A stretch of 64,000 nucleotides of DNA from Escherichia coli. Lineage in GTDB: Bacteria; Pseudomonadota; Gammaproteobacteria; Enterobacterales; Enterobacteriaceae. The DNA lies in the NCBI RefSeq assembly GCF_051903065.1, contig NZ_CP178438.1; one strand, 5' to 3'. The notes below the pieces were generated by a model. It was given only the letters and a program-made list of their open reading frames with translations, was not told the origin of the DNA and searched no databases. This document shows, one piece after another, positions 1 to 12,031 of the stretch; position 1 is the stretch's first letter, and each line of letters starts with the position of its first letter. The position numbers were made by a program, and so were the translations under genes.

Positions 1-108
1 TGGTTCTTCGTTATCATGAGCAGCGAACAGATTTGGCAAAGCGTATGCAGCCTGGGGCCCCTTAGGGTTTAAGCCCATATGTAAGCAAATGGCGCATACG
101 CTGAGCCA

Positions 109-151
<43 letters not shown>

Positions 152-168
152 AGCAAGAATGGGCAATA

Positions 169-816
<648 letters not shown>

Positions 817-919
817 AGAAATGTAATGAATCCTGCCATCAGGTTACTCCATAATTTTGTTGGTCAAGACAGTTAATTACGTGACGTATGCTCAGGCACC
901 GGATGCCGTTTTACAGGGC

Positions 920-1651
920 TCACCTGCCATCCAGTAGACGCCCCGGCCCACGACTGCAACCATAATTACGTTGCCCAGAACCGTCATGCTGCTTCGTCTC
1001 ATACTTCACGAGATAACAGGCTCTCTCCATGGCTTTCTGCATCGCTTCCACATCACCACGCTTGACCCAGAGAACAGCGGCTTCACCCGGCTTTTTGTCT
1101 GAAGCCTTCCTGGTTTCAGAACATCCACCCGACAAAGGCGTATCATCGGAAGAAGGGCGAGCATCAGATGATGTCGGTTTACGGAAAGGCGTCCGCCTGG
1201 AAAAATGAACCAGTCCATTACCCTGCCAGGGCTCGAGATGCAGAGCACTGCACCATGCCAGCTTGATCAGCGTCGCCAGCGAAGAAGGAACGGTGAAATC
1301 CCCTGGCGAGCACCAGGTATCTTTGTTGAGCAGTAATATCACGTGATAATGTTTCCTGCCTTTTTCCTTGCCAAACTCCCGACACCAGAAATAACGCAGA
1401 GTGGTTGCACGCACACGCTTGTTGGCACGTCGTTTTTTCCGCTGGTAAGCCTGAATTTTTGCTTTCAGGGATTCGAAAAAACGAGAAATCACTGCTGAAT
1501 CTAAATCGGTATCCATAATAGTGGCAGGCATATACTCAGGAAAACGTAAATCCACCCGAATTAACGAGACGGCACGGTGCTGCACTAGGGCACTGTCGAG
1601 AAGGCTGTCAAAACGGGATAACCAGTAAGCATTGTGTATTGGTTGATTCAT
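920..1651 (-). CDS. YfjJ/YagK-family protein (inovirus Gp2-like) of cryptic prophages
   Basis: 243 aa ORF; recalled similarity to E. coli YfjJ/YagK paralogs; sits beside the CP4-like module. Confidence 0.7.
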   Translation of the reverse strand: MNQPIHNAYWLSRFDSLLDSALVQHRAVSLIRVDLRFPEYMPATIMDTDLDSAVISRFFESLKAKIQAYQRKKRRANKRVRATTLRYFWCREFGKEKGRKHYHVILLLNKDTWCSPGDFTVPSSLATLIKLAWCSALHLEPWQGNGLVHFSRRTPFRKPTSSDARPSSDDTPLSGGCSETRKASDKKPGEAAVLWVKRGDVEAMQKAMERACYLVKYETKQHDGSGQRNYGCSRGPGRLLDGR

Positions 1652-2499
1652 GATGAGAGATCTCCGTTGATTTGGATTGACTTCACATCATTAATCACTG
1701 CGGTAAAACTTTACGGCATCCCGCCATTGAGCAACGCCAATGGCTCCTGATTAAAACAGAATGAATCCCCCACGAAGAAAAGATAAACCTACACGCAGGG
1801 TAAAACACACAACAACGGCATAAATGGTTTTTAAAAACTACAAAGCCCGAAGGGAAACGGATCAACAGAACGTGCAAACAAAACACCAAAAACGCAATCA
1901 GAACGCTTTCTGCTGCTGTGAATCAACAACAATACCAAAACCTACAGCTTAACCACAAAACTCAATCACAGAGCCGAATAGCGCGTTTAAAACCTGTTTA
2001 CAGATAACCCTGCCCCGAGAACAAAAACCACCAACATCAGAATCGATTTTCTTATCCTGAAAACGTTACTTTTCAACACACCATAAAAACGATTAACCAT
2101 CGATAACGTAAATCTCATCTGAATCAAAACACCAGAACCAATCATCACGCTTTTTCTGAAAAGAGCCTTATGATGAAGATAATCACCTTGCACTGAGAAA
2201 AAACACCAGGGCCAGTTAATCATCTCATCAATCTTATCGCTACAAAATCATCCATAAAACCATTTAACAAAATCATCGTAAGCACACAGTAAATCACGCC
2301 AGGTTATCTCAGCCGGATTTGCGTTTTACATAAAAACACTTGTCTCAGGTTAACGACTAAAAACACGAAAACTCATAAAAGGTTAAATGTAACATCAGAA
2401 AAATAGAATATCATATTGATTGCTTAAACAGGAAAGATTGTTTTGTAGTAGCATTAAGCTGATTTTAGTTAACGTAAAAACAGGACTGACAGGTTTACT

Positions 2500-2722
2500 A
2501 AACTGGATGTGTATCAGACAAAGCAATGTGTATAACAATACTTAATGAAAACACTTGTAGAATTGTTTATGAAAACATGTGTATGTCTGGTAAAACACTT
2601 AGTAGAAAATACGTGTATAACACTTACTGAAATGCTTAGTAAAAACACTTAGTAAAATATGTGTAGAATTATCTATTTAAAAAGATATGTATATAACACT
2701 TAATAAAAACATGTGTATATAG
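2500..2722. repeat. Array of degenerate direct repeats (ATGTGTAT / AACACTTA units), iteron- or operator-like
   Basis: At least seven copies of ATGTGTAT-like and five of AACACTTA(G/A)TA-like motifs within about 220 bp of AT-rich DNA; fused unit GTGTATAACACTTA seen at about 2612 and 2687. Confidence 0.55.
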
Positions 2723-3401
2723 TATCATACCGACATTCTCAACATCTTCAGACACTCATGCAGACTGAATGTTCGTTTCAGTTTTTCACGGCCAGCATGG
2801 GGATTTTTGTTCTGAAAACGGAGCAGATTTACTCTGGAATTATTTTTCTGTCCCCGTATTTCAGGCCCCAGAAAAGACAATCCGAAGCAAACCGTTTGTC
2901 AGCTTCCATATCATCTTTTACCCCCGGAAAGTGATCGCGTTTTACAACCAGAATGACAGCCATACTGATTATGTCGTCTCCCGGCCCCCTTCACATATAA
3001 CATGCATGCCTGTCATTGCTTACTGCTCCACATGACAGGATTTCACATACAGGATGCGCATTCAGTGTTTTTATCGCCACTATAACAGACAGATTACTGT
3101 CGCTTTTACTCTTCAGATTGTTAATCTGACCACAAGAACAGTCGAACAGTACAACGACACACCCAAGGAGGATATGAGCAGTAGTTGATAGCATGTTTTA
3201 ATTTATTATGAATAGATCAAGAATAGATCGTGAATAGTTAGAGAATAGTTCTTCAGCATCTCACAGAGTGATCAAGCCTTGAAGTGATTGCTTTTTGAAC
3301 ACAAGTCCGGATGCAATGTTTTTTTGTTAACTTCCTTGCATATTCGATTTCCATGTGATAGTGAAAATCACCAGAAGAGAATGCGATTGAGGCGTAATCA
3401 G

Positions 3402-4211
3402 ATGAAACAATATGAAGATGGTTATAACGTGAATGGATATAGCTGGGAAAATGAAACAATTGAGTATTTGTTGAATGATAAACAACTGACAGATAATCAC
3501 ATACCTGAATGGGTTAAAAAAAATGAAATTGCAGCATTCTGGTTCTGGTTAGTTATAATTAACACAGATCCCAAACTCCTTGGGGTTCGTAATGAATTAG
3601 GGTTCAATACAGCCATGATGGGGCTGATTCCTGCGGGGAGTATACCCATAACAACAATTCCTTCAGATCATGAAATGAGACTGGATGTTATAAGCAAATG
3701 GATTAATGCATTAATCCTTGACAATCAATCAGATTGCTTCATCTCAACAATGCATCAAAACTGGCTGCAGATCGAAAAGAGAAACGAAGCCAAATGGCTT
3801 AAAAAGAATACAGAACAACTCGAATGGGCATGGAAATATATCAATGCACGCATCCCGCACACGTATCTTTCCTGGTTTTATCCTGTAAGTGATAACGAAA
3901 GATACATTGCTATCGTAGTTTTACTAAAAATTTTATTCCCCGCAGATACACCATACTTACAGCAGCCAAAAGTACTTCACTATGGGGTTGCCGCAAAAGA
4001 AAAATTTTTCGACAAGATGCACAATGCATTCCGAAAACAGTTTACCGACGGAAAAAAAGATAAGCGGGTACAAATCAACGTTAAAATATCATCAGATGCA
4101 AAACGTACTCTGGACAGACTGACCAGAGAACTGAAAACAACACAACAGGCTGTCCTGGAACATCTGATTCAGAACCACAGGCTGGTGATTCAGAACCACA
4201 GACTGTATTAA
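3402..4211 (+). CDS. Hypothetical protein with C-terminal ribbon-helix-helix-like segment
   Basis: ORF 3288-4211; preferred ATG at 3402 (MKQYEDG) preceded by GAGG. C-terminus RVQINVKISSDAKRTLDRLTRELKTTQQAVLEHLIQ resembles an RHH DNA-binding motif. N-terminal about 220 aa unrecognised. Confidence 0.5.
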   Translation: MKQYEDGYNVNGYSWENETIEYLLNDKQLTDNHIPEWVKKNEIAAFWFWLVIINTDPKLLGVRNELGFNTAMMGLIPAGSIPITTIPSDHEMRLDVISKWINALILDNQSDCFISTMHQNWLQIEKRNEAKWLKKNTEQLEWAWKYINARIPHTYLSWFYPVSDNERYIAIVVLLKILFPADTPYLQQPKVLHYGVAAKEKFFDKMHNAFRKQFTDGKKDKRVQINVKISSDAKRTLDRLTRELKTTQQAVLEHLIQNHRLVIQNHRLY

Positions 4212-5155
4212 CTTTCACCACTTCTGCTCCTGCCGATTTTCTTCTTTTGGTAGTGTCTCCTGGCTGCGGATATCAGATACTTTTCCGTCATTTTGTTGCA
4301 GAACTCTTCAATGTAGTTAATCATTTTCTGGTGTGCTTTCAGCTTTTCTTCCCCGGGGGACGCTTTCAGATAAATGTCCTCCTTTTCCACAAGCGCATTG
4401 ACAAACTCCCCTAAACATCCCTGGTTATAAAGCGACGTGAAAAACAACACATCCCCCAGTCTCTCCAGTAACTGTGGTTTATCCCCGAAATGTTTTTTTA
4501 TACTTTCAAAAGGTTTTCTATTTTCCGGATCAAAAAAAACACTTAATCCCAGTCGCTTATATTCCTGGTAAAAAAGTTCAAACGTCGGGGATGCTGAACG
4601 GCAAATAAACGAAGACTGCGCCCATGGATTAAAATCTGTGACACGCCTCCCCTCCCGCACTTCCTGTCGTGTCAGCGGTGGTTCAGCAAACCAGGCGTCC
4701 AGCTCAGCCGAATCGTTATCCCTGCTCAAAACCTCATACAAACTGCCCGTGAACGGTTGAGCCGTTTGTTTTGTTGCTTCGCCTTCTGATTGTCTGAATC
4801 CATCCACTTTTCTCCGGATATTACGCGGAATCAGCATAAAAGGCGGGACATTAAGTGATAAACGTTTACCCGTCATGCGATACCATTGACCTACCTCAAC
4901 CTTAATCCGTGTATCTGACTTTAGCTCAAGTGCCATTATGTTAAGCAGGTACAGATAACGCACCGTATAACGATTAAAATGTTTCTCCGGATCAAACGAT
5001 TCTGACCGTTCTCCTCTGTACACGAGTCTGCTGCGCTTCAGTATTCGCAGAGTATATTTCCAGGCCGGACTTTTACAAATGGCGGTAACTCTGGCCTTAT
5101 TAACAATGTCGCGTAATGCATCAATCTGTTGTGCAGTCATCTCTTCCCTCCACAC
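4208..5155 (-). CDS. Hypothetical protein, no recognisable domain
   Basis: 315 aa ORF (alternative start 5140, MTAQQ). Convergent with the previous gene; stop codons overlap within TTAA. Uninterrupted long ORF, basic C-terminal tail. Confidence 0.5.
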   Translation of the reverse strand: MWREEMTAQQIDALRDIVNKARVTAICKSPAWKYTLRILKRSRLVYRGERSESFDPEKHFNRYTVRYLYLLNIMALELKSDTRIKVEVGQWYRMTGKRLSLNVPPFMLIPRNIRRKVDGFRQSEGEATKQTAQPFTGSLYEVLSRDNDSAELDAWFAEPPLTRQEVREGRRVTDFNPWAQSSFICRSASPTFELFYQEYKRLGLSVFFDPENRKPFESIKKHFGDKPQLLERLGDVLFFTSLYNQGCLGEFVNALVEKEDIYLKASPGEEKLKAHQKMINYIEEFCNKMTEKYLISAARRHYQKKKIGRSRSGES

Positions 5156-5246
5156 TTTGTCACTCCAGATTTTTTCACGCCCATATTACCTGAATGATAA
5201 ACCGGATTAGTGTGATCCGGTTCAGTGAAATCAACAGGATACCGGT

Positions 5247-6131
5247 ATGTCATTCAGCCATTCTTCCCTCTCCGCACAAGTGAAATCATATCTGACGTTT
5301 CTTCCTGAAGAAATTCGCCAGAAAATCCTTGAACATCTCCACGGTGTTATTCATTACGAGCCCGTGATTGGCATTATGGGTAAATCCGGCACCGGCAAAA
5401 GCAGTCTGTGTAATGCCATTTTTCAGTCCCGTATCTGCGCCACGCATCCCCTGAACGGCTGCACCCGCCAGGCTCATCGCCTCACCCTGCAGATTGGTGA
5501 ACGCAGAATGACGCTGGTCGATCTGCCCGGCATTGGTGAAACACCGCAGCATGATCAGGAATACCGGGAGCTTTACCGTCAGTTACTGCCGGAACTGGAT
5601 CTGATTATCTGGATCCTGCGGGCTGATGAACGTGCGTATGCTGCTGATATTGCCATGCATCAGTTTTTACTGAATGAAGGTGCAGATCCCTCGCGTTTTC
5701 TGTTTGTTCTCAGCCATGCCGATCGCGTGTTTCCTGCTGAAGAATGGAACGACGCAGAAAAATGCCCGTCCCGTCAGCAGGAACTCTCACTGGCGACAGT
5801 AACAGCCCGGGTGGCCACCCTGTTCCCGTCATCATTTCCGGTACTCTCCGTTGCAGCGCCTGTCGGCTGGAATCTTCCGGCACTGGTGTCACTGATGATC
5901 CACGCACTGCCACCACAGGCAACCAGCGCGGTTTATTCACATATCCGGGGGGAAAACCGCTCTGAACAGGCCCGGAAACACGCACAACAGACTTTTGGTG
6001 ACGCCATCGGGAAAAGTTTTGACGACGCCGTTGCCCGGTTCAGTTTTCCGGCCTGGATGTTACAGCTTCTGCGTAAAGCCCGGGCCCGCATTATCCACCT
6101 ACTGGTCACACTGTGGGATCACCTGTTCTGA
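5247..6131 (+). CDS. YeeP/YkfA/YfjP-family P-loop GTPase of CP4-like islands
   Basis: Walker A GIMGKSGTGKSS; G3-like DLPGIGE; recalled similarity to the YeeP/YfjP/YkfA family. Confidence 0.8.
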   Translation: MSFSHSSLSAQVKSYLTFLPEEIRQKILEHLHGVIHYEPVIGIMGKSGTGKSSLCNAIFQSRICATHPLNGCTRQAHRLTLQIGERRMTLVDLPGIGETPQHDQEYRELYRQLLPELDLIIWILRADERAYAADIAMHQFLLNEGADPSRFLFVLSHADRVFPAEEWNDAEKCPSRQQELSLATVTARVATLFPSSFPVLSVAAPVGWNLPALVSLMIHALPPQATSAVYSHIRGENRSEQARKHAQQTFGDAIGKSFDDAVARFSFPAWMLQLLRKARARIIHLLVTLWDHLF

Positions 6132-6249
6132 GCGCCCCGGAGTCCCCCGTGGCAACCGTATACCTTTACACGACAACGGATTACGGTAACCACTGCCGTA
6201 TACCGTCTGTCATTATCAATAACACGCTCTTTAATTTCAGAGGTCAGTC

Positions 6250-6927
6250 ATGAATACCAGAATGCTTTTTCCCCTGCTGTTCACTGTGGCATCCTTCTCC
6301 ACCTCCGCCGGTAACTGGGCTGTCAAAAACGGCTGGTGTCAGACCATGACGGAAGATGGTCAGGCGCTGGTAATGCTGAAAAATGGCACGATTGGTATTA
6401 CCGGCCTGATGCAGGGATGCCCGAATGGCGTACAGACGCTCCTGGGCAGCCGTATCAGTATTAACGGTAACCTGATCCCCACATCACAAATGTGTAATCA
6501 GCAGACAGGATTCAGGGCTGTTGAGGTGGAAGTCGGACAGGCGCCGGAAATGGTCAAAAAAGCCGTTCACTCCATAGCAGAGCGTGATGTGTCCGTTTTA
6601 CAGGCATTTGGTGTACGAATGGAATTCACCCGCGGTGATATGCTGAAGGTCTGTCCGAAATTTGTCACATCACTTGCCGGTTTTTCCCCGAAACAGACAC
6701 CCGCCATTAATAAAGATTCCGTCCTGCAGGCTGCCCGGCTGGCATACGCCCGGGAATATGACGAGGAAACAACAGAAACCGCTGATTTTGGCTCTTACGA
6801 AGTAAAAGGCAATAAGGTTGAGTTTGAAGTGTTCAATCCTGAAGACCGTGCGTACGACAAAGTGACCGTCACGGTTGGTGCTGACGGTAATGCCACCGGT
6901 GCCAGCGTTGAATTTATCGGAAAATAG
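6250..6927 (+). CDS. Secreted protein of unknown function (N-terminal signal peptide)
   Basis: 225 aa; hydrophobic N-terminus MNTRMLFPLLFTVASFSTSAG; occupies the slot downstream of the GTPase where flu (Ag43) sits in CP4-44. Confidence 0.55.
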   Translation: MNTRMLFPLLFTVASFSTSAGNWAVKNGWCQTMTEDGQALVMLKNGTIGITGLMQGCPNGVQTLLGSRISINGNLIPTSQMCNQQTGFRAVEVEVGQAPEMVKKAVHSIAERDVSVLQAFGVRMEFTRGDMLKVCPKFVTSLAGFSPKQTPAINKDSVLQAARLAYAREYDEETTETADFGSYEVKGNKVEFEVFNPEDRAYDKVTVTVGADGNATGASVEFIGK

Positions 6928-6956
6928 CCGGTATGTCGGACTGTCACCCTGTTTAA

Positions 6957-7166
6957 TTGCCCGAAGGCCCTTTCTCACGCGAACAGGCGGTTGCCGTCAC
7001 AACAGCTTACCGCAATGTGCTTATTGAAGATGACCAGGGAACGCATTTCCGGCTGGTTATCCGTAATGCTGAAGGTCAGTTGCGCTGGCGGTACTGGAAT
7101 TTTGAATCCGATGCCGGAAAACAGCTTAATGTGTGGCTCGCCAGTGAAGGGCTTCTCAGACAATAA
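6957..7166 (+). CDS. Small conserved island protein (DUF905-like)
   Basis: 69 aa ORF followed directly by a hairpin plus T-tract terminator; family recalled from CP4-like islands; start uncertain. Confidence 0.4.
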
Positions 7167-7189
7167 ACGTCATTCATTTCATCCATCAG

Positions 7190-7220
7190 GCCGCGTCTTC
7201 TCCGGGAGGCGCGGCTTTTT
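7190..7220 (+). terminator. Rho-independent terminator
   Basis: GCCGCG ... CGCGGC stem followed by TTTTT. Confidence 0.6.
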
Positions 7221-7256
7221 CATTTATATCGCTAACTCATTCATAAGGAGCAAATC

Positions 7257-8075
7257 ATGCGATTAGCAAGTCGTTTTGGTTATGCGAACCAGATACGCCG
7301 TGACCGCCCCTTAACTCGCGAAGAACTGATGCAGGTCGTCCCCAGCGTATTCGGGGAAGATAAGCACACATCCAGAAGCGAGAACTATACCTGGATCCCC
7401 ACCATCACCGTGCTGGAAAGCCTGCAGCGGGAAGGCTTTCAGCCCTTCTTTGCCTGCCAGACCCGCGTACGTGACCCGGGCCGCCGGGGGTATACCAAAC
7501 ACATGCTGCGTCTGCGCCGTGACGGGGAGATAAACGGACAACATGTCCCTGAAATCATCCTGCTGAACTCCCATGACGGTACCTCCAGCTACCAGATGCT
7601 GCCGGGTTACTTCAGGTTCGTCTGCCAGAACGGCTGCGTCTGTGGTCAGTCTCTGGGGGAAGTGCGTGTTCCGCACCGGGGAAATGTGGTGGACAGAGTC
7701 ATTGAAGGGGCTTACGAAGTGGTGGGCGTTTTTGACCGGATTGAGGAAAAGCGTGATGCCATGCAGTCGCTGGTCCTGCCGCCACCGGCACGCCAGGCGC
7801 TGGCACAGGCGGCACTGACTTACCGTTATGGTGACGAACATCAGCCCGTCACCACCGCCGACATTCTGACGCCACGACGCCGGGAGGATTACGGTAAGGA
7901 CCTGTGGAGTGCTTATCAGACCATCCAGGAAAATATGCTGAAAGGCGGGATTTCTGGTCGCAGCGCTAAAGGAAAACGTATCCACACCCGTGCCATTCAC
8001 AGCATCGACACGGACATTAAGCTCAATCGCGCATTGTGGGTGATGGCAGAAACGCTGCTGGAGAGCATGCGCTGA
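7257..8075 (+). CDS. DUF932-family protein (YfjQ/YafZ-like)
   Basis: 272 aa; recalled similarity to YfjQ/YafZ; conserved position upstream of the antirestriction gene. Confidence 0.75.
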   Translation: MRLASRFGYANQIRRDRPLTREELMQVVPSVFGEDKHTSRSENYTWIPTITVLESLQREGFQPFFACQTRVRDPGRRGYTKHMLRLRRDGEINGQHVPEIILLNSHDGTSSYQMLPGYFRFVCQNGCVCGQSLGEVRVPHRGNVVDRVIEGAYEVVGVFDRIEEKRDAMQSLVLPPPARQALAQAALTYRYGDEHQPVTTADILTPRRREDYGKDLWSAYQTIQENMLKGGISGRSAKGKRIHTRAIHSIDTDIKLNRALWVMAETLLESMR

Positions 8076-8166
8076 TGCTGTTTCCCTGAAAGTGCAACCC
8101 TGACTCACGTCTGTACCAGTCCCCGGGCATTCTTCCATTCATTTACTTTTTATAAGGAATCATCTC

Positions 8167-8652
8167 ATGACAACCTTTTCGCATAGCTCCACCACGCCTT
8201 CTGTTTCCGTAACCACTGCACCAGGGAATAACCAGTCTCAACTGGTTGCCACTCCCGTCCCTGATGAACAGCGCATCAGTTTCTGGCCGCAACATTTTGG
8301 CCTCATTCCACAGTGGGTGACCCTGGAGCCCCGTGTCTTCGGCTGGATGGACCGTCTTTGCGAAGACTACTGCGGTGGTATCTGGAATCTGTACACCCTG
8401 AACAACGGTGGGGCATTTATGGTACCCGAACCGGATGACGATGATGACGAAACATGGGTACTGTTCAATGCCATGAACGGCAACCGCGCTGAAATGAGCC
8501 CGGAAGCCGCCGGCATTGCCGCCTGTCTGATGGCGTACAGTCATCACGCCTGTCGTACAGAGAATTATGCCATGACGGTCCATTATTATCGGTTGCGGGA
8601 TTACGCCCTGCAGCATCCGGAATGCAACGCCATTATGCGCATCATCGACTGA
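8167..8652 (+). CDS. Antirestriction protein, ArdB/KlcA-like (YfjX/YafX family)
   Basis: 161 aa; acidic stretch PEPDDDDDETW; family and position typical of CP4-like islands. Confidence 0.75.
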   Translation: MTTFSHSSTTPSVSVTTAPGNNQSQLVATPVPDEQRISFWPQHFGLIPQWVTLEPRVFGWMDRLCEDYCGGIWNLYTLNNGGAFMVPEPDDDDDETWVLFNAMNGNRAEMSPEAAGIAACLMAYSHHACRTENYAMTVHYYRLRDYALQHPECNAIMRIID

Positions 8653-8667
8653 ATGGAGAGAAGCACA

Positions 8668-9144
8668 ATGCAACAGCTTTCCTTTCTGCCCGGAGAGATG
8701 ACGCCCGGCGAGCGCAGCCTCATTCTGCGGGCCCTGAAAACCCTGGACCGCCATCTTCATGAACCCGGTGTGGCCTTCACCTCCACGCATGCGGCACGGG
8801 AATGGCTGATTCTGAACATGGCGGGACTGGAGCGGGAAGAGTTCCGGGTACTGTATCTGAACAACCAGAATCAGCTGATTGCCGGTGAAACCCTCTTCAC
8901 AGGCACCATCAACCGCACGGAAGTCCATCCCCGGGAGGTAATTAAACGTGCCCTGTACCACAATGCCGCTGCCGTGATACTGGCACACAACCACCCGTCC
9001 GGTGAAGTCACCCCCAGTAAGGCAGATCGCCTTATCACGGAACGCCTGGTACAGGCACTGGCCCTGGTGGATATCCGGGTACCGGACCATCTGATAGTTG
9101 GTGGCAACCAGGTTTTCTCCTTTGCGGAACACGGTCTGCTTTAA
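8668..9144 (+). CDS. yeeS: RadC-like JAB/MPN domain protein (YeeS/YfjY/YkfG family)
   Basis: JAMM motif HNHPSG; near identity to recalled YeeS from MQQLSFLPGEMTPGERSL; ORF track starts 15 nt upstream at 8653. Confidence 0.85.
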   Translation: MQQLSFLPGEMTPGERSLILRALKTLDRHLHEPGVAFTSTHAAREWLILNMAGLEREEFRVLYLNNQNQLIAGETLFTGTINRTEVHPREVIKRALYHNAAAVILAHNHPSGEVTPSKADRLITERLVQALALVDIRVPDHLIVGGNQVFSFAEHGLL

Positions 9145-9212
9145 CCCGTCACCGCCACAACCATATCACACCTGTTTTCACTTTTATCTTCTGTCTTCAG
9201 AGGTATCCCACT

Positions 9213-9434
9213 ATGAAAATCATCACCCGTGGCGAAGCCATGCGTATTCACCGTCAGCATCCGGCATCCCGTCTTTTTCCGTTCTGTACCGGCAAATACC
9301 GCTGGCACGGCAGTGCTGAAGCGTATACCGGTCGTGAAGTGCAGGATATTCCCGGTGTGCTGGCCGTGTTTGCTGAACGCCGTAAGGACAGTTTTGGCCC
9401 GTATGTCCGGCTGATGAGCGTCACCCTGAACTGA
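9213..9434 (+). CDS. yeeT: DUF987 protein (YeeT-like)
   Basis: 73 aa MKIITRGEAMRIHRQHPASRLFPF... matches recalled YeeT. Confidence 0.85.
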   Translation: MKIITRGEAMRIHRQHPASRLFPFCTGKYRWHGSAEAYTGREVQDIPGVLAVFAERRKDSFGPYVRLMSVTLN

Positions 9435-9513
9435 GTCTGGAAGGGCATTCAGAAGAGCAGAATTATCGCCACCACCGGACCATTCTTAACCAATTTTCTG
9501 TGAGGATTTTATC

Positions 9514-9888
9514 GTGTCAGACACTCTCCCCGGGACAACGCATCCCGACGATAACAACGACCGCCCCTGGTGGGGGCTACCCTGCACCGTGACGCCCTGT
9601 TTTGGGGCACGTCTGGTGCAGGAGGGTAACCGGTTGCATTACCTTGCAGACCGCGCCGGTATCAGAGGCCGGTTCAGCGACGCGGATGCGTACCATCTGG
9701 ACCAGGCCTTTCCGCTGCTGATGAAACAACTGGAACTCATGCTCACCAGCGGTGAACTGAATCCCCGCCATCAGCATACCGTCACGCTGTATGCAAAAGG
9801 GCTGACCTGCAAAGCCGATACCCTCAGCAGTTGTGGTTACGTTTATATGGCTGTTTATCCGACACTGGCACCCGCAACCACCTCATAA
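9514..9888 (+). CDS. cbeA: CbeA (YeeU) antitoxin of the CbtA/CbeA type IV toxin-antitoxin system
   Basis: 124 aa; near identity to recalled YeeU (MSDTLPGTT...WWGLPCTVTPCFGARLVQEGNRLHYLADRAGIRG). Confidence 0.9.
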   Translation: MSDTLPGTTHPDDNNDRPWWGLPCTVTPCFGARLVQEGNRLHYLADRAGIRGRFSDADAYHLDQAFPLLMKQLELMLTSGELNPRHQHTVTLYAKGLTCKADTLSSCGYVYMAVYPTLAPATTS

Positions 9889-9934
9889 CCCCGAATATCT
9901 CACCTTTAGCACTACCAGTTACAGAGAACTTAAG

Positions 9935-10312
9935 ATGAAAACATTACCTGACACACACGTACGGGAGGCATCGCGCTGCCCGTCTCCCGTCACCATCTGG
10001 CAGACACTGCTCACCCGACTGTTGGACCAGCATTACGGCCTCACACTGAATGACACACCGTTCGCTGATGAACGTGTGATTGAGCAGCATATTGAGGCAG
10101 GCATTTCACTGTGCGATGCGGTGAACTTTCTCGTTGAAAAATACGCACTGGTACGTACCGACCAGCCAGGATTCAGCGCCTGTACCCGTTCTCAGTTAAT
10201 AAACAGTATTGATATCCTCCGGGCCCGCCGGGCAACCGGCCTGATGGCCCGCGACAATTACAGAACGGTAAATAACATTACCCTGGGTAAACATCCGGGG
10301 GCGAAACAATGA
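9935..10312 (+). CDS. cbtA: CbtA (YeeV) toxin, cytoskeleton-binding type IV toxin
   Basis: 125 aa from ATG 9935 (MKTLPDTHV...); matches recalled YeeV (LNDTPFADERVIEQHIEAGISLCDAVNFLVEKYALVRTDQPGFSA); directly downstream of cbeA. Confidence 0.9.
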   Translation: MKTLPDTHVREASRCPSPVTIWQTLLTRLLDQHYGLTLNDTPFADERVIEQHIEAGISLCDAVNFLVEKYALVRTDQPGFSACTRSQLINSIDILRARRATGLMARDNYRTVNNITLGKHPGAKQ

Positions 10313-10800
10313 AACTGGCCCTGACGCTGGAAGCCGACAGCATTAACGTGCAGGCACTGAACATGGGGCGCATTGTCGTTGACGTCGATGGTGTTACTCT
10401 CGCTGAACTGATTAACGTGGTCTGCGATAACGGTTACTCCCTTCGTGTTGTTGATGAATCTGACCGGACATCAGCAGAGCGCACGCCATCATCTGCGGCG
10501 GCCCTTACCGGCATACGCTGCAGTACCGCGCATATCACGGCAAAGGACAACGCCTGGCTGTACTCGCTGTCACATCAGACGAATGGCACCGGCGAATCAG
10601 AATGGATTCATTTCACAGGTAGCGGATATCTGTTACGTACCGATGCGTGGTCATACCCGGTTCTGCGGCTTAAGCGCCTGGGCCTGTCAAAAACGTTCCG
10701 TCGTCTGGTTGTCACACTTACCCGACGTTATGGCGTCAGTCTCATTCATCTGGATGCCAGCGCTGAATGTCTGCCGGACCTGCCCACTTTCGACTGGTAA
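10309..10800 (+). CDS. YeeW-like protein
   Basis: 163 aa ORF whose start overlaps the cbtA stop; conserved position after cbtA. Confidence 0.65.
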   Translation: MKLALTLEADSINVQALNMGRIVVDVDGVTLAELINVVCDNGYSLRVVDESDRTSAERTPSSAAALTGIRCSTAHITAKDNAWLYSLSHQTNGTGESEWIHFTGSGYLLRTDAWSYPVLRLKRLGLSKTFRRLVVTLTRRYGVSLIHLDASAECLPDLPTFDW

Positions 10801-10811
10801 CCAGGAACAAC

Positions 10812-11009
10812 ATGAAATCATTAACCACGGAAACCGCACTGGATATTCTGATTGCGTGGCTACAGGACAATATCGACTGCGAATCGGGAATTATCTTTGA
10901 CAACGATGAGGATAGAACGGATTCGGCAGCACTGTTGCCCTGTATCGAACAGGCCAGGGAGGATATCCGTATCCTGCGCCAGTTGCAGCTTCTGCAACAG
11001 AACCGGTGA
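10812..11009 (+). CDS. Small hypothetical protein
   Basis: 65 aa from ATG 10812 (MKSLTTETALD...); followed by a hairpin plus T-tract terminator. Confidence 0.4.
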   Translation: MKSLTTETALDILIAWLQDNIDCESGIIFDNDEDRTDSAALLPCIEQAREDIRILRQLQLLQQNR

Positions 11010-11038
11010 GTCTTACTCACCAGACTTCATTCCACTGA

Positions 11039-11066
11039 CGCCAGCCTGAACAGGGCTGGCGTTTTC
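11039..11066 (+). terminator. Rho-independent terminator
   Basis: CGCCAGCC-TGAACAG-GGCTGGCG stem-loop followed by TTTTC. Confidence 0.65.
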
Positions 11067-11093
11067 ATTTATCTGCAAAAAGGAATATCGATT

Positions 11094-11960
11094 ATGTCTG
11101 AAATCACAGCCCCCCGTCCGGAAGTGGTCAACGGGCATACGGACGTTATCGGCTCAACCAGCATCCGCCACATTCTGGCTGTACGAAAGAGTGCGCTGCT
11201 GCAAATCGACACACTTATCCGGCAACTGGCAGAAATCTCGGTGCTGACGGAAAGCATCGGAGGTAAAACTGCACTGGACTGGGCCATGAAACAGGATTTT
11301 CGCTGCGGTTGCTGGCTGATGGAAAAACCGGAAACCGCAATGAAAGCCATCACCCGCAACCTTGACCGCGAAATCTGGCGTGATCTGATGCAACGTTCAG
11401 GGATGCTGTCATTAATGGATGCACAAGCCCGTGATACATGGTACCGGTCACTGGAGTACGATAATTTTCCGGAAATCAGCGAAGCAAATATCCTGAGCAC
11501 GTTTGAACAACTGCACCAGAACAAAGATGAAGTGTTTGAGCGAGGGGTGCTCAACGTTTTCAGAGGACTGAGCTGGAATTACAAAACCAATTCACCCTGC
11601 AAATTTGGCAGTAAAATTATCGTCAACAATCTGGTGAGGTGGGACCGGTGGGGGTTTCATCTTATCACCGGACAACAGGCCGATCGACTTGCCGATCTGG
11701 AAAGAATGCTGCACCTGTTCAGCGGCAAACCGATCCCCGACAACCGGGAAAACATCACCATTCATCTGGATGATCACATCCAGTCTGTTCAGGGTAAAGA
11801 GGACTATGAAGATGAGATGTTCAGCATCAGATACTTTAAGAAGGGCTCCGCGCACATCACGTTCAGGAAACCAGAGCTGGTTGACAGGCTTAATGATATT
11901 ATTGCCAGACACTACCCGGAAGCCCTGGCAAGCACAGTGAACAAAAGCCGCAAGGCATAA
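11094..11960 (+). CDS. Hypothetical protein (conserved island cargo)
   Basis: 288 aa uninterrupted ORF with AAAGGAA ribosome-binding site upstream; no catalytic motif recognised. Confidence 0.6.
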   Translation: MSEITAPRPEVVNGHTDVIGSTSIRHILAVRKSALLQIDTLIRQLAEISVLTESIGGKTALDWAMKQDFRCGCWLMEKPETAMKAITRNLDREIWRDLMQRSGMLSLMDAQARDTWYRSLEYDNFPEISEANILSTFEQLHQNKDEVFERGVLNVFRGLSWNYKTNSPCKFGSKIIVNNLVRWDRWGFHLITGQQADRLADLERMLHLFSGKPIPDNRENITIHLDDHIQSVQGKEDYEDEMFSIRYFKKGSAHITFRKPELVDRLNDIIARHYPEALASTVNKSRKA

Positions 11961-12031
11961 AAGAGGTATTTTACAATTCGCGAATATTAACTATTATTAA
12001 TTGATAGTAATCAATCGGCGAGAAAATAACC

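Follow-up and report, generated by a model that had tools for sequence, protein, structure and literature searches.

The window analysed here is a 64-kb stretch of Escherichia coli DNA (64,000 nucleotides of contig NZ_CP178438.1, assembly GCF_051903065.1), in which two convergent genes of no recognised family, termed A and B, occupy a CP4-type island between a YfjJ-like gene and a YeeP-like GTPase gene. The A-B pair is genuine, linked and uncharacterised, and it represents a fixed, polymorphic core locus of these islands, not random defence cargo. The genes and their immediate flanks are the following:

Gene A, 3402-4211, plus strand: from ATG 3402 to TAA 4209-4211, 269 amino acids.
Gene B, 4208-5140, minus strand: 310 amino acids from ATG 5140 (MTAQQ...).
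Shared stop tetranucleotide TTAA, 4208-4211, both strands: TAA on the plus and TAA on the minus strand.
Gene of the "inovirus Gp2 family" (YfjJ/YagK-type), 920-1651, minus strand: left flank.
YeeP/YfjP-type GTPase gene, 5247-6131, plus strand: right flank.

An earlier note on this DNA had described two facing open reading frames (ORFs) of 269 and 315 amino acids with stop codons sharing TTAA, flanked by a yfjJ-like gene and a YeeP-like GTPase; the ORF calls and the sequence agree with this layout, with both flanks and with the length of A. The 315 amino acids given for B apply only to the longest ORF (4208-5155, minus strand), which starts at an upstream GTG, whereas ATG 5140 is the start in the PGAP/RefSeq annotation of identical DNA and in all homologues, supporting 310 amino acids. 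The cargo that the note had named for the corresponding place in CP4-57 (rnlAB and yfjKLM) is indeed present in K-12, where abpBA (yfjKL), yfjM and rnlAB lie between yfjJ and yfjP. The overlapping stops leave no intergenic room for a terminator between A and B. This 4-bp TTAA overlap is retained in nine of nine E. coli loci, even with wholly different flanking codons, and reads CTAA in the distant locus L005; other distant A-B loci show overlaps of 11 or 26 bp, or gaps of 13-121 bp. Close convergent packing is common to the whole A-B family; an overlap of exactly 4 bp is characteristic of the E. coli branch and one distant branch.

A and B co-occur almost 1:1. Of 5,426 complete E. coli genomes, 742 carry B, 560 carry A of the blastn-detectable types and 196 carry the divergent MS1718 type, whose A is 28% identical to that of the window (BLASTP). 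All nine E. coli loci, comprising five A allele types, carry convergent A-B pairs, and in eight of eight cases the distant B homologues on the contigs read are accompanied by a convergent A-like protein gene (256-320 amino acids), at spacings between an overlap of 26 bp and a gap of 121 bp, so that the arrangement holds in 17/17 loci examined. The near 1:1 counts and the eight distant pairs argue against an independent occurrence of the two genes and uphold the tight convergent pair proposed in the earlier note. Neither do they correspond to established prophage regulatory or replication proteins, as tblastn with B matched none of 50,697 phage records, two of 72,556 plasmids and one IMG/VR contig, and PHROG matches had E 0.03 or worse. 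B has 69 close relatives, to which a library-wide profile search added about 16 more of full length, 23-29% identical and with the motifs conserved; a scan of a genome collection with a reduced B alignment returned only two loci and samples the taxonomic range poorly. An IS3-family insertion sequence (IS) splits A in the EC12 group and A is 5'-truncated in STK39-3-E, with B intact and identical in these loci (WP_023155730.1); at least two independent events of IS disruption are represented, and the RHH-containing fragment of A (ribbon-helix-helix, described below) persists in them.

Both ORFs are real genes under purifying selection, since homologues of conserved length extend down to 23-29% identity and the ratio of nonsynonymous to synonymous substitution rates (dN/dS) is below 1. 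Values ranged from 0.18 to 0.57 for the N-terminal part of A, 0.10 to 0.19 for its RHH part, mostly 0.26 to 0.84 for B, and 0.12 to 0.22 for the GTPase; the sole exception for the N-terminal domain of A (1.45) came from a near-identical pair at about 1% divergence.

Protein A comprises an all-helical, tryptophan-rich, hypervariable N-terminal domain (residues ~1-205) and a C-terminal RHH domain (residues ~218-260) with the strand RVQINVKIS. The RHH-like segment that the earlier note had seen at the end of the plus-strand protein is confirmed by a strand-helix-helix fold of ~40-45 residues, of which the C-terminal ~40 superpose on solved RHH domains at 1.4-2.0 Å, and A is predicted from this modelled fold to be a DNA-binding protein. 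Besides this tail, A had no match in Pfam, NCBIfam, PHROG, PADLOC or PDB, and PDB sequence profiles returned nothing for A or B at E up to 10. Below threshold, the A of the window matched RepB-RCR_reg (PF10723, E 0.079) and RHH_1 (PF01402, E 0.27) in Pfam and, under the cutoff, RepC_IncLM in NCBIfam (E 0.002), and PF10723 matches are carried by the A relatives P0080 and P0082-85 and by the partners in L005, L008 and L009. The A family is smaller than that of B, with relatives down to 25-28% identity. The DNA features of this gene are as follows:

Candidate promoter/operator of A, 3185-3250, plus strand: the box TTGATAGCATGTTTT (3185-3199), then four GAATAG(A/T)T direct repeats.
Tandem duplication of 21 bp at the 3' end of A, 4167-4208, plus strand: LIQNHRL-VIQNHRL-Y, adding seven residues, in this allele type only; in the alignment, other A alleles end in ...LILNGRLD.

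The four repeats start at 3210, 3221, 3232 and 3243, with an exact period of 11 bp, in the region ~150-220 bp upstream of A, and they account for four of the six GAATAGWT matches in the window (background 0.12 per kb). Across five allele types the TTGATAGCATGTTTT box is invariant and the repeats occur in 2-5 copies, degenerate ones counted. Strict repeats lie upstream of A in every locus with the RHH strand QIN[VI]K[IV]S, among them the distant L005, where the GTPase shares only 50% identity; loci with a different RHH strand (the MS1718 type and L008-L010) have none. This co-variation of the repeats with the RHH strand provides the best evidence that A recognises the GAATAG repeats, which are candidate A-binding sites on the basis of sequence. 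A different inverted repeat, GTGAT-N(4-7)-ATCAC, was also observed close upstream of A in several allele types (window 3351-3375; L002 ~5163-5182; L003 ~4770-4785), among them the MS1718 type, which has no GAATAG repeats.

Protein B is a basic protein with an isoelectric point (pI) of 9.6, belonging to an orphan family. Its conserved motifs include AW..TQ..LKRSG, VRYLY, IRRKVDGFRQ, GSLY, LE.LG..LFF and a basic C-terminal tail; apart from an RRK patch, the residues that never vary are mostly hydrophobic. Structure prediction gave a confident model, for which no structural relative was found in the PDB and Foldseek against AFDB50 returned only B's own family. No match was found for B in Pfam, NCBIfam, PHROG, PADLOC or PDB, nor was a nuclease, nucleoside triphosphatase (NTPase), TIR, SIR2 or pore motif recognisable. 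The hidden Markov model and structure-based searches therefore bear out the view that neither gene can be placed in a known family, with the RHH tail of A as the only recognisable part, also when distant relatives were searched against Pfam, NCBIfam, PHROG and PADLOC, and the literature yielded no paper tied to the six protein accessions looked up. In some B alleles (P0050, P0056; L012 3925-4926), a loop around residues 75-80 contains PDTR(P) repeats (RPDTRPDTRPDTR) whose number varies.

The two proteins differ strongly between islands that are otherwise alike. Backbone proteins are 84-100% identical between E. coli islands, compared with 23-68% for A and 52-73% for B; between CFT073 and MS1718, for instance, the GTPase and DUF932 proteins are identical, with A at 25% and B at 52%. 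The N-terminal domain of A falls into five types of 18-68% identity and is 18-37% identical between islands whose GTPases are 91-100% identical; for the RHH part, identity is 74-100% among four of the five types. The N-terminal half is the most conserved part of B, and its C-terminal third tracks the adjacent RHH type; the N-terminal domain of A varies independently of B, being 37% identical where the C-terminal third of B is 91% identical. Synonymous divergence (dS) is 0.34 to >2 in this domain of A versus 0.08-0.28 in the flanks, and together with dN/dS below 1 this indicates an exchange of old alleles and not recent bursts of positive selection.

The pair holds a fixed backbone position in the E. 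coli islands and in metagenomic relatives. The gene order in compact relatives places the GTPase/WYL arm (leftward), B (rightward), A (leftward) and the alpA-YfjJ(Rep)-Zn-ribbon arm (rightward) in succession, so that A-B sits exactly between two divergent arms, alpA/YfjJ-Rep, divergent from A, and GTPase/WYL-DUF932-ArdB-RadC-CbeA/CbtA, divergent from B. A match in Hafnia alvei also lies in the backbone and ends at a contig end, its partner gene being unchecked, and B homologues occur in Salmonella as well. In E. coli genomes the GTPase allele family occupies 2,508 places and B 821; most of the others carry one of two B homologues that stand alone:

Solo B homologue of 407 amino acids, L024 7752-8975, sister island in E. 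coli Nord1: 1,069 places in complete E. coli genomes.
Solo B homologue of 376 amino acids, L025 7762-8892, sister island in E. coli FEX669: 515 places in complete E. coli genomes.
B/GTPase divergent intergenic region, window 5141-5246, no strand assigned: common to islands with solo B homologues from ~5171 on.
Perfect 8-bp inverted repeat AACCGGAT-N6-ATCCGGTT, window 5200-5221, no strand assigned: GTPase leader or promoter, in part common to solo-B islands.

The solo genes occupy the position of A-B, divergent from the GTPase and after the same conserved AT-rich gap; in islands without B, matches to the GTPase region begin at query position 31-32. The 407- and 376-amino-acid proteins align with B at hhalign probabilities of 95.7% and 98.1%, respectively, including the AW..TQ, I.P..IRRK and GSLY motifs, and B and the solo forms share a pI of 9.6-9.8. 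Each solo protein has an extra N-terminal C-x4-C...C-x2-H motif plus a basic segment, a sequence pattern that predicts a zinc finger, and has no A partner; plausibly, the DNA-binding part is supplied in trans by A in the A-B form instead of in cis. The solo forms are not fusions of A and B, given that they show no similarity to A, and YfjH of CP4-57, which is of similar size and divergent from alpA, was rejected as a relative of B or A (hhalign probability < 1%). Together, A-B and the two solo forms account for 2,405 of the 2,508 GTPase-arm places (~96%), and on this count the backbone almost obligatorily includes a B-superfamily gene, of which A-B is one allelic form. The earlier note's idea of variable cargo at a defence hotspot is not supported: the core position is fixed, and islands without A-B have a remote B homologue there.

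A recent preprint (PMC12458937) describes this class of elements, with an integrase, AlpA, an HUH Rep, a payload and a terminal RadC/ArdB/CbtA "moron" module, in which the A-B genes go unmentioned. In the Shigella SRL pathogenicity island, orf42-45 between vis/alpA and the YfjP/YeeP GTPase were reported as "no similarity" ORFs with no function given (PMC6980539); they share the slot and the island class with A-B, a comparison made here by position. One compact relative (L021 1750-15500) lies between two LysR genes and has full alpA/YfjJ and GTPase-DUF932-RadC-CbtA arms, with no integrase called within the 19 kb read. Two related islands encode TIR-domain proteins in their alpA/YfjJ arm (L004 1658-2362; L023 10313-11287), and recognisable defence-type cargo therefore sits in a slot other than that of A-B.

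The RHH domain of A, its divergent N-terminal domain, the co-varying repeats, the strict pairing, the central position, the solo B forms, the basic character of B and its absence or near absence from phages and plasmids support a reading of A-B as a split DNA-binding sensor/regulator module that forms the central control locus of the CP4-type element family, which we favour tentatively, at somewhat short of an even chance. Under this reading, an RHH oligomer of A would bind the GAATAGWT repeats and A would regulate its own gene, and the N-terminal domain of A may be the sensor of an external signal that varies, for instance a factor from a helper phage, a plasmid or the host, by analogy with the logic of the Stl repressor of Staphylococcus aureus pathogenicity islands (SaPIs). 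A would in turn recruit or control B, which may act on DNA or RNA and set the expression of one or both arms. Because a terminator would not fit between the convergent genes, transcribing either one would be expected to interfere with the other, possibly leading to switch-like behaviour.

Two groups of known regulators offer comparisons for A. With the RHH repressors of the Arc/MetJ/CopG superfamily it shares the C-terminal strand-helix-helix and tandem repeats spaced by one helical turn upstream of its own gene; however, A has 269 amino acids with an unrelated hypervariable N-terminal domain of 200 residues, and the A of the window remains under Pfam thresholds (E 0.08-0.27). The SaPI Stl-type repressors serve as a working analogy, because they likewise lie at the junction of divergent arms and combine a DNA-binding domain with a highly divergent one in otherwise near-identical islands. 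Nevertheless, Stl possesses a helix-turn-helix in place of the RHH of A, with no relation in sequence or fold, B has no SaPI counterpart, no helper phage is known, and the A-B family is nearly absent from viral contigs. A role of A-B as an incompatibility or immunity determinant is unlikely, as the same form occurs up to 3-4 times in single genomes.

Several points weigh against the control-locus reading. The combination of an RHH domain and autoregulatory repeats is just as typical for antitoxins and defence-operon regulators, and arms-race (defence/anti-defence) loci, too, show deep allelic diversity within a conserved backbone. No homology assigns B an activity, and its predicted fold is unmatched. 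K-12 islands such as CP4-57 have no A-B locus and carry known defence genes upstream of the GTPase instead, which indicates that the module is dispensable for island persistence. Finally, no consensus sigma-70 promoter was found for A or B, in a consensus promoter and terminator scan that was itself uninformative (two promoter-like sites against 5.5 expected).

A broader version, which we consider possible but rather improbable, holds that B and its two solo relatives constitute a new superfamily of previously unseen fold, acting as the master control or effector protein of these common integrated elements. DNA recognition would be coupled to it either in cis, through the putative Cys/His finger, or in trans, through the RHH protein A, and the A alleles would reflect different inducing or invading elements.

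The anti-phage defence proposed in the earlier note, an abortive-infection-like system in which A would be the sensor and autoregulator and B an effector on nucleic acid, appears unlikely. A-B lies upstream of the GTPase, where CP4-57 has AbpAB and RnlAB, in an island class described as a carrier of defence payloads (PMC12458937), and the tight two-gene module with its hypervariable sensor-like domain, deep allelic diversity, low GC content and orphan proteins would suit such a system. However, no PADLOC-DB v2 family was matched at E up to 1 by A, B, five distant B and five distant A homologues or the solo forms, and B has none of the nuclease, NTPase, TIR, SIR2 or pore motifs sought. Moreover, the position is fixed across genera and not sporadic, and the presence of a B-superfamily gene in ~96% of GTPase arms has the look of an element function.

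More doubtful is a role as a replication or mobilisation accessory, which draws on the DNA that separates A from the Gp2/YfjJ-like gene. Positions 1652-3401 form an ORF-free, AT-rich stretch of 1.75 kb (27-45% GC) that is 73-93% conserved among islands and has been hit by IS3 in CFT073; conceivable roles are those of an origin, a transfer site or a silenced regulatory region. A remnant of alpA was looked for here and none was found, and Rfam gave no match on positions 1-12000. The most AT-rich part contains the following feature:

Iteron-like cluster, 2500-2720: AACACTTRNTRAAA in five copies, against 0.24 expected by chance, with ATGTGTATA-type motifs in between, 27% GC.

In such a role, A would be a CopG/RepB-regulator or TraY-like origin binder and B a loader or nicking accessory, working with the YfjJ/Gp2-type rolling-circle Rep on the iteron-like region. 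The basic character of B and the adjacency of A to this conserved region and to the Gp2/Rep gene are consistent with this, as are the weak matches of A to RepB-RCR_reg, IncL/M RepC and RepA regulatory proteins, but the latter are explained by the generic RHH fold. In addition, the GAATAG repeats lie at A's own promoter and outside the iteron cluster, and B shows neither the signature nor the fold of an HUH, Rep_trans or relaxase protein and is nearly absent from plasmids. On the far side of the Gp2/YfjJ-like gene, overlapping short ORFs at 169-826 represent a remnant of a frameshifted IS110-family transposase, annotated as such in L001.

An addiction module stabilising the island, with B as toxin and A as RHH antitoxin-repressor, is improbable: although A-B resembles type II toxin-antitoxin systems with RHH antitoxins (MazEF, ParDE, TacAT) in being a strictly co-occurring pair of genes, located on a mobile element and probably autoregulated by an RHH protein, its genes are convergent in 17/17 loci and not a co-transcribed bicistronic operon, its RHH is C-terminal to a 200-residue domain that does not co-vary with B, the 310-amino-acid B has no toxin fold or family (no Pfam, NCBIfam, PDB or AFDB relative outside its own family), partner-less solo B homologues occur in >1500 places, and the fact that B survives where A has been split or truncated by IS3-family elements speaks against a simple toxin-antitoxin pair, with the caveat that B may not be expressed in those loci and that a fragment of A with the RHH persists there. 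This survival of B and the lack of PADLOC matches likewise leave the defence or addiction pattern of the earlier note without support.

Islands of the integrase-alpA-Rep ... GTPase-DUF932-ArdB-RadC-CbeA/CbtA type are present in about one third of complete E. coli genomes, often in several copies, and ferry defence, virulence and resistance genes. In E. coli H9Ecoli, for example, an island otherwise identical to that of the window carries ISEcp1-blaCTX-M-55 inside the cbtA toxin gene (L001 19007-21963), which shows that these islands acquire resistance genes. If the defence reading were true, A-B would be a new two-gene system, and if the superfamily reading were true, the locus would reveal a new sensor-effector logic for island induction or immunity. 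A nearly always occupied locus with three deeply divergent forms, situated between the two arms, offers a concrete handle on how these islands are controlled.
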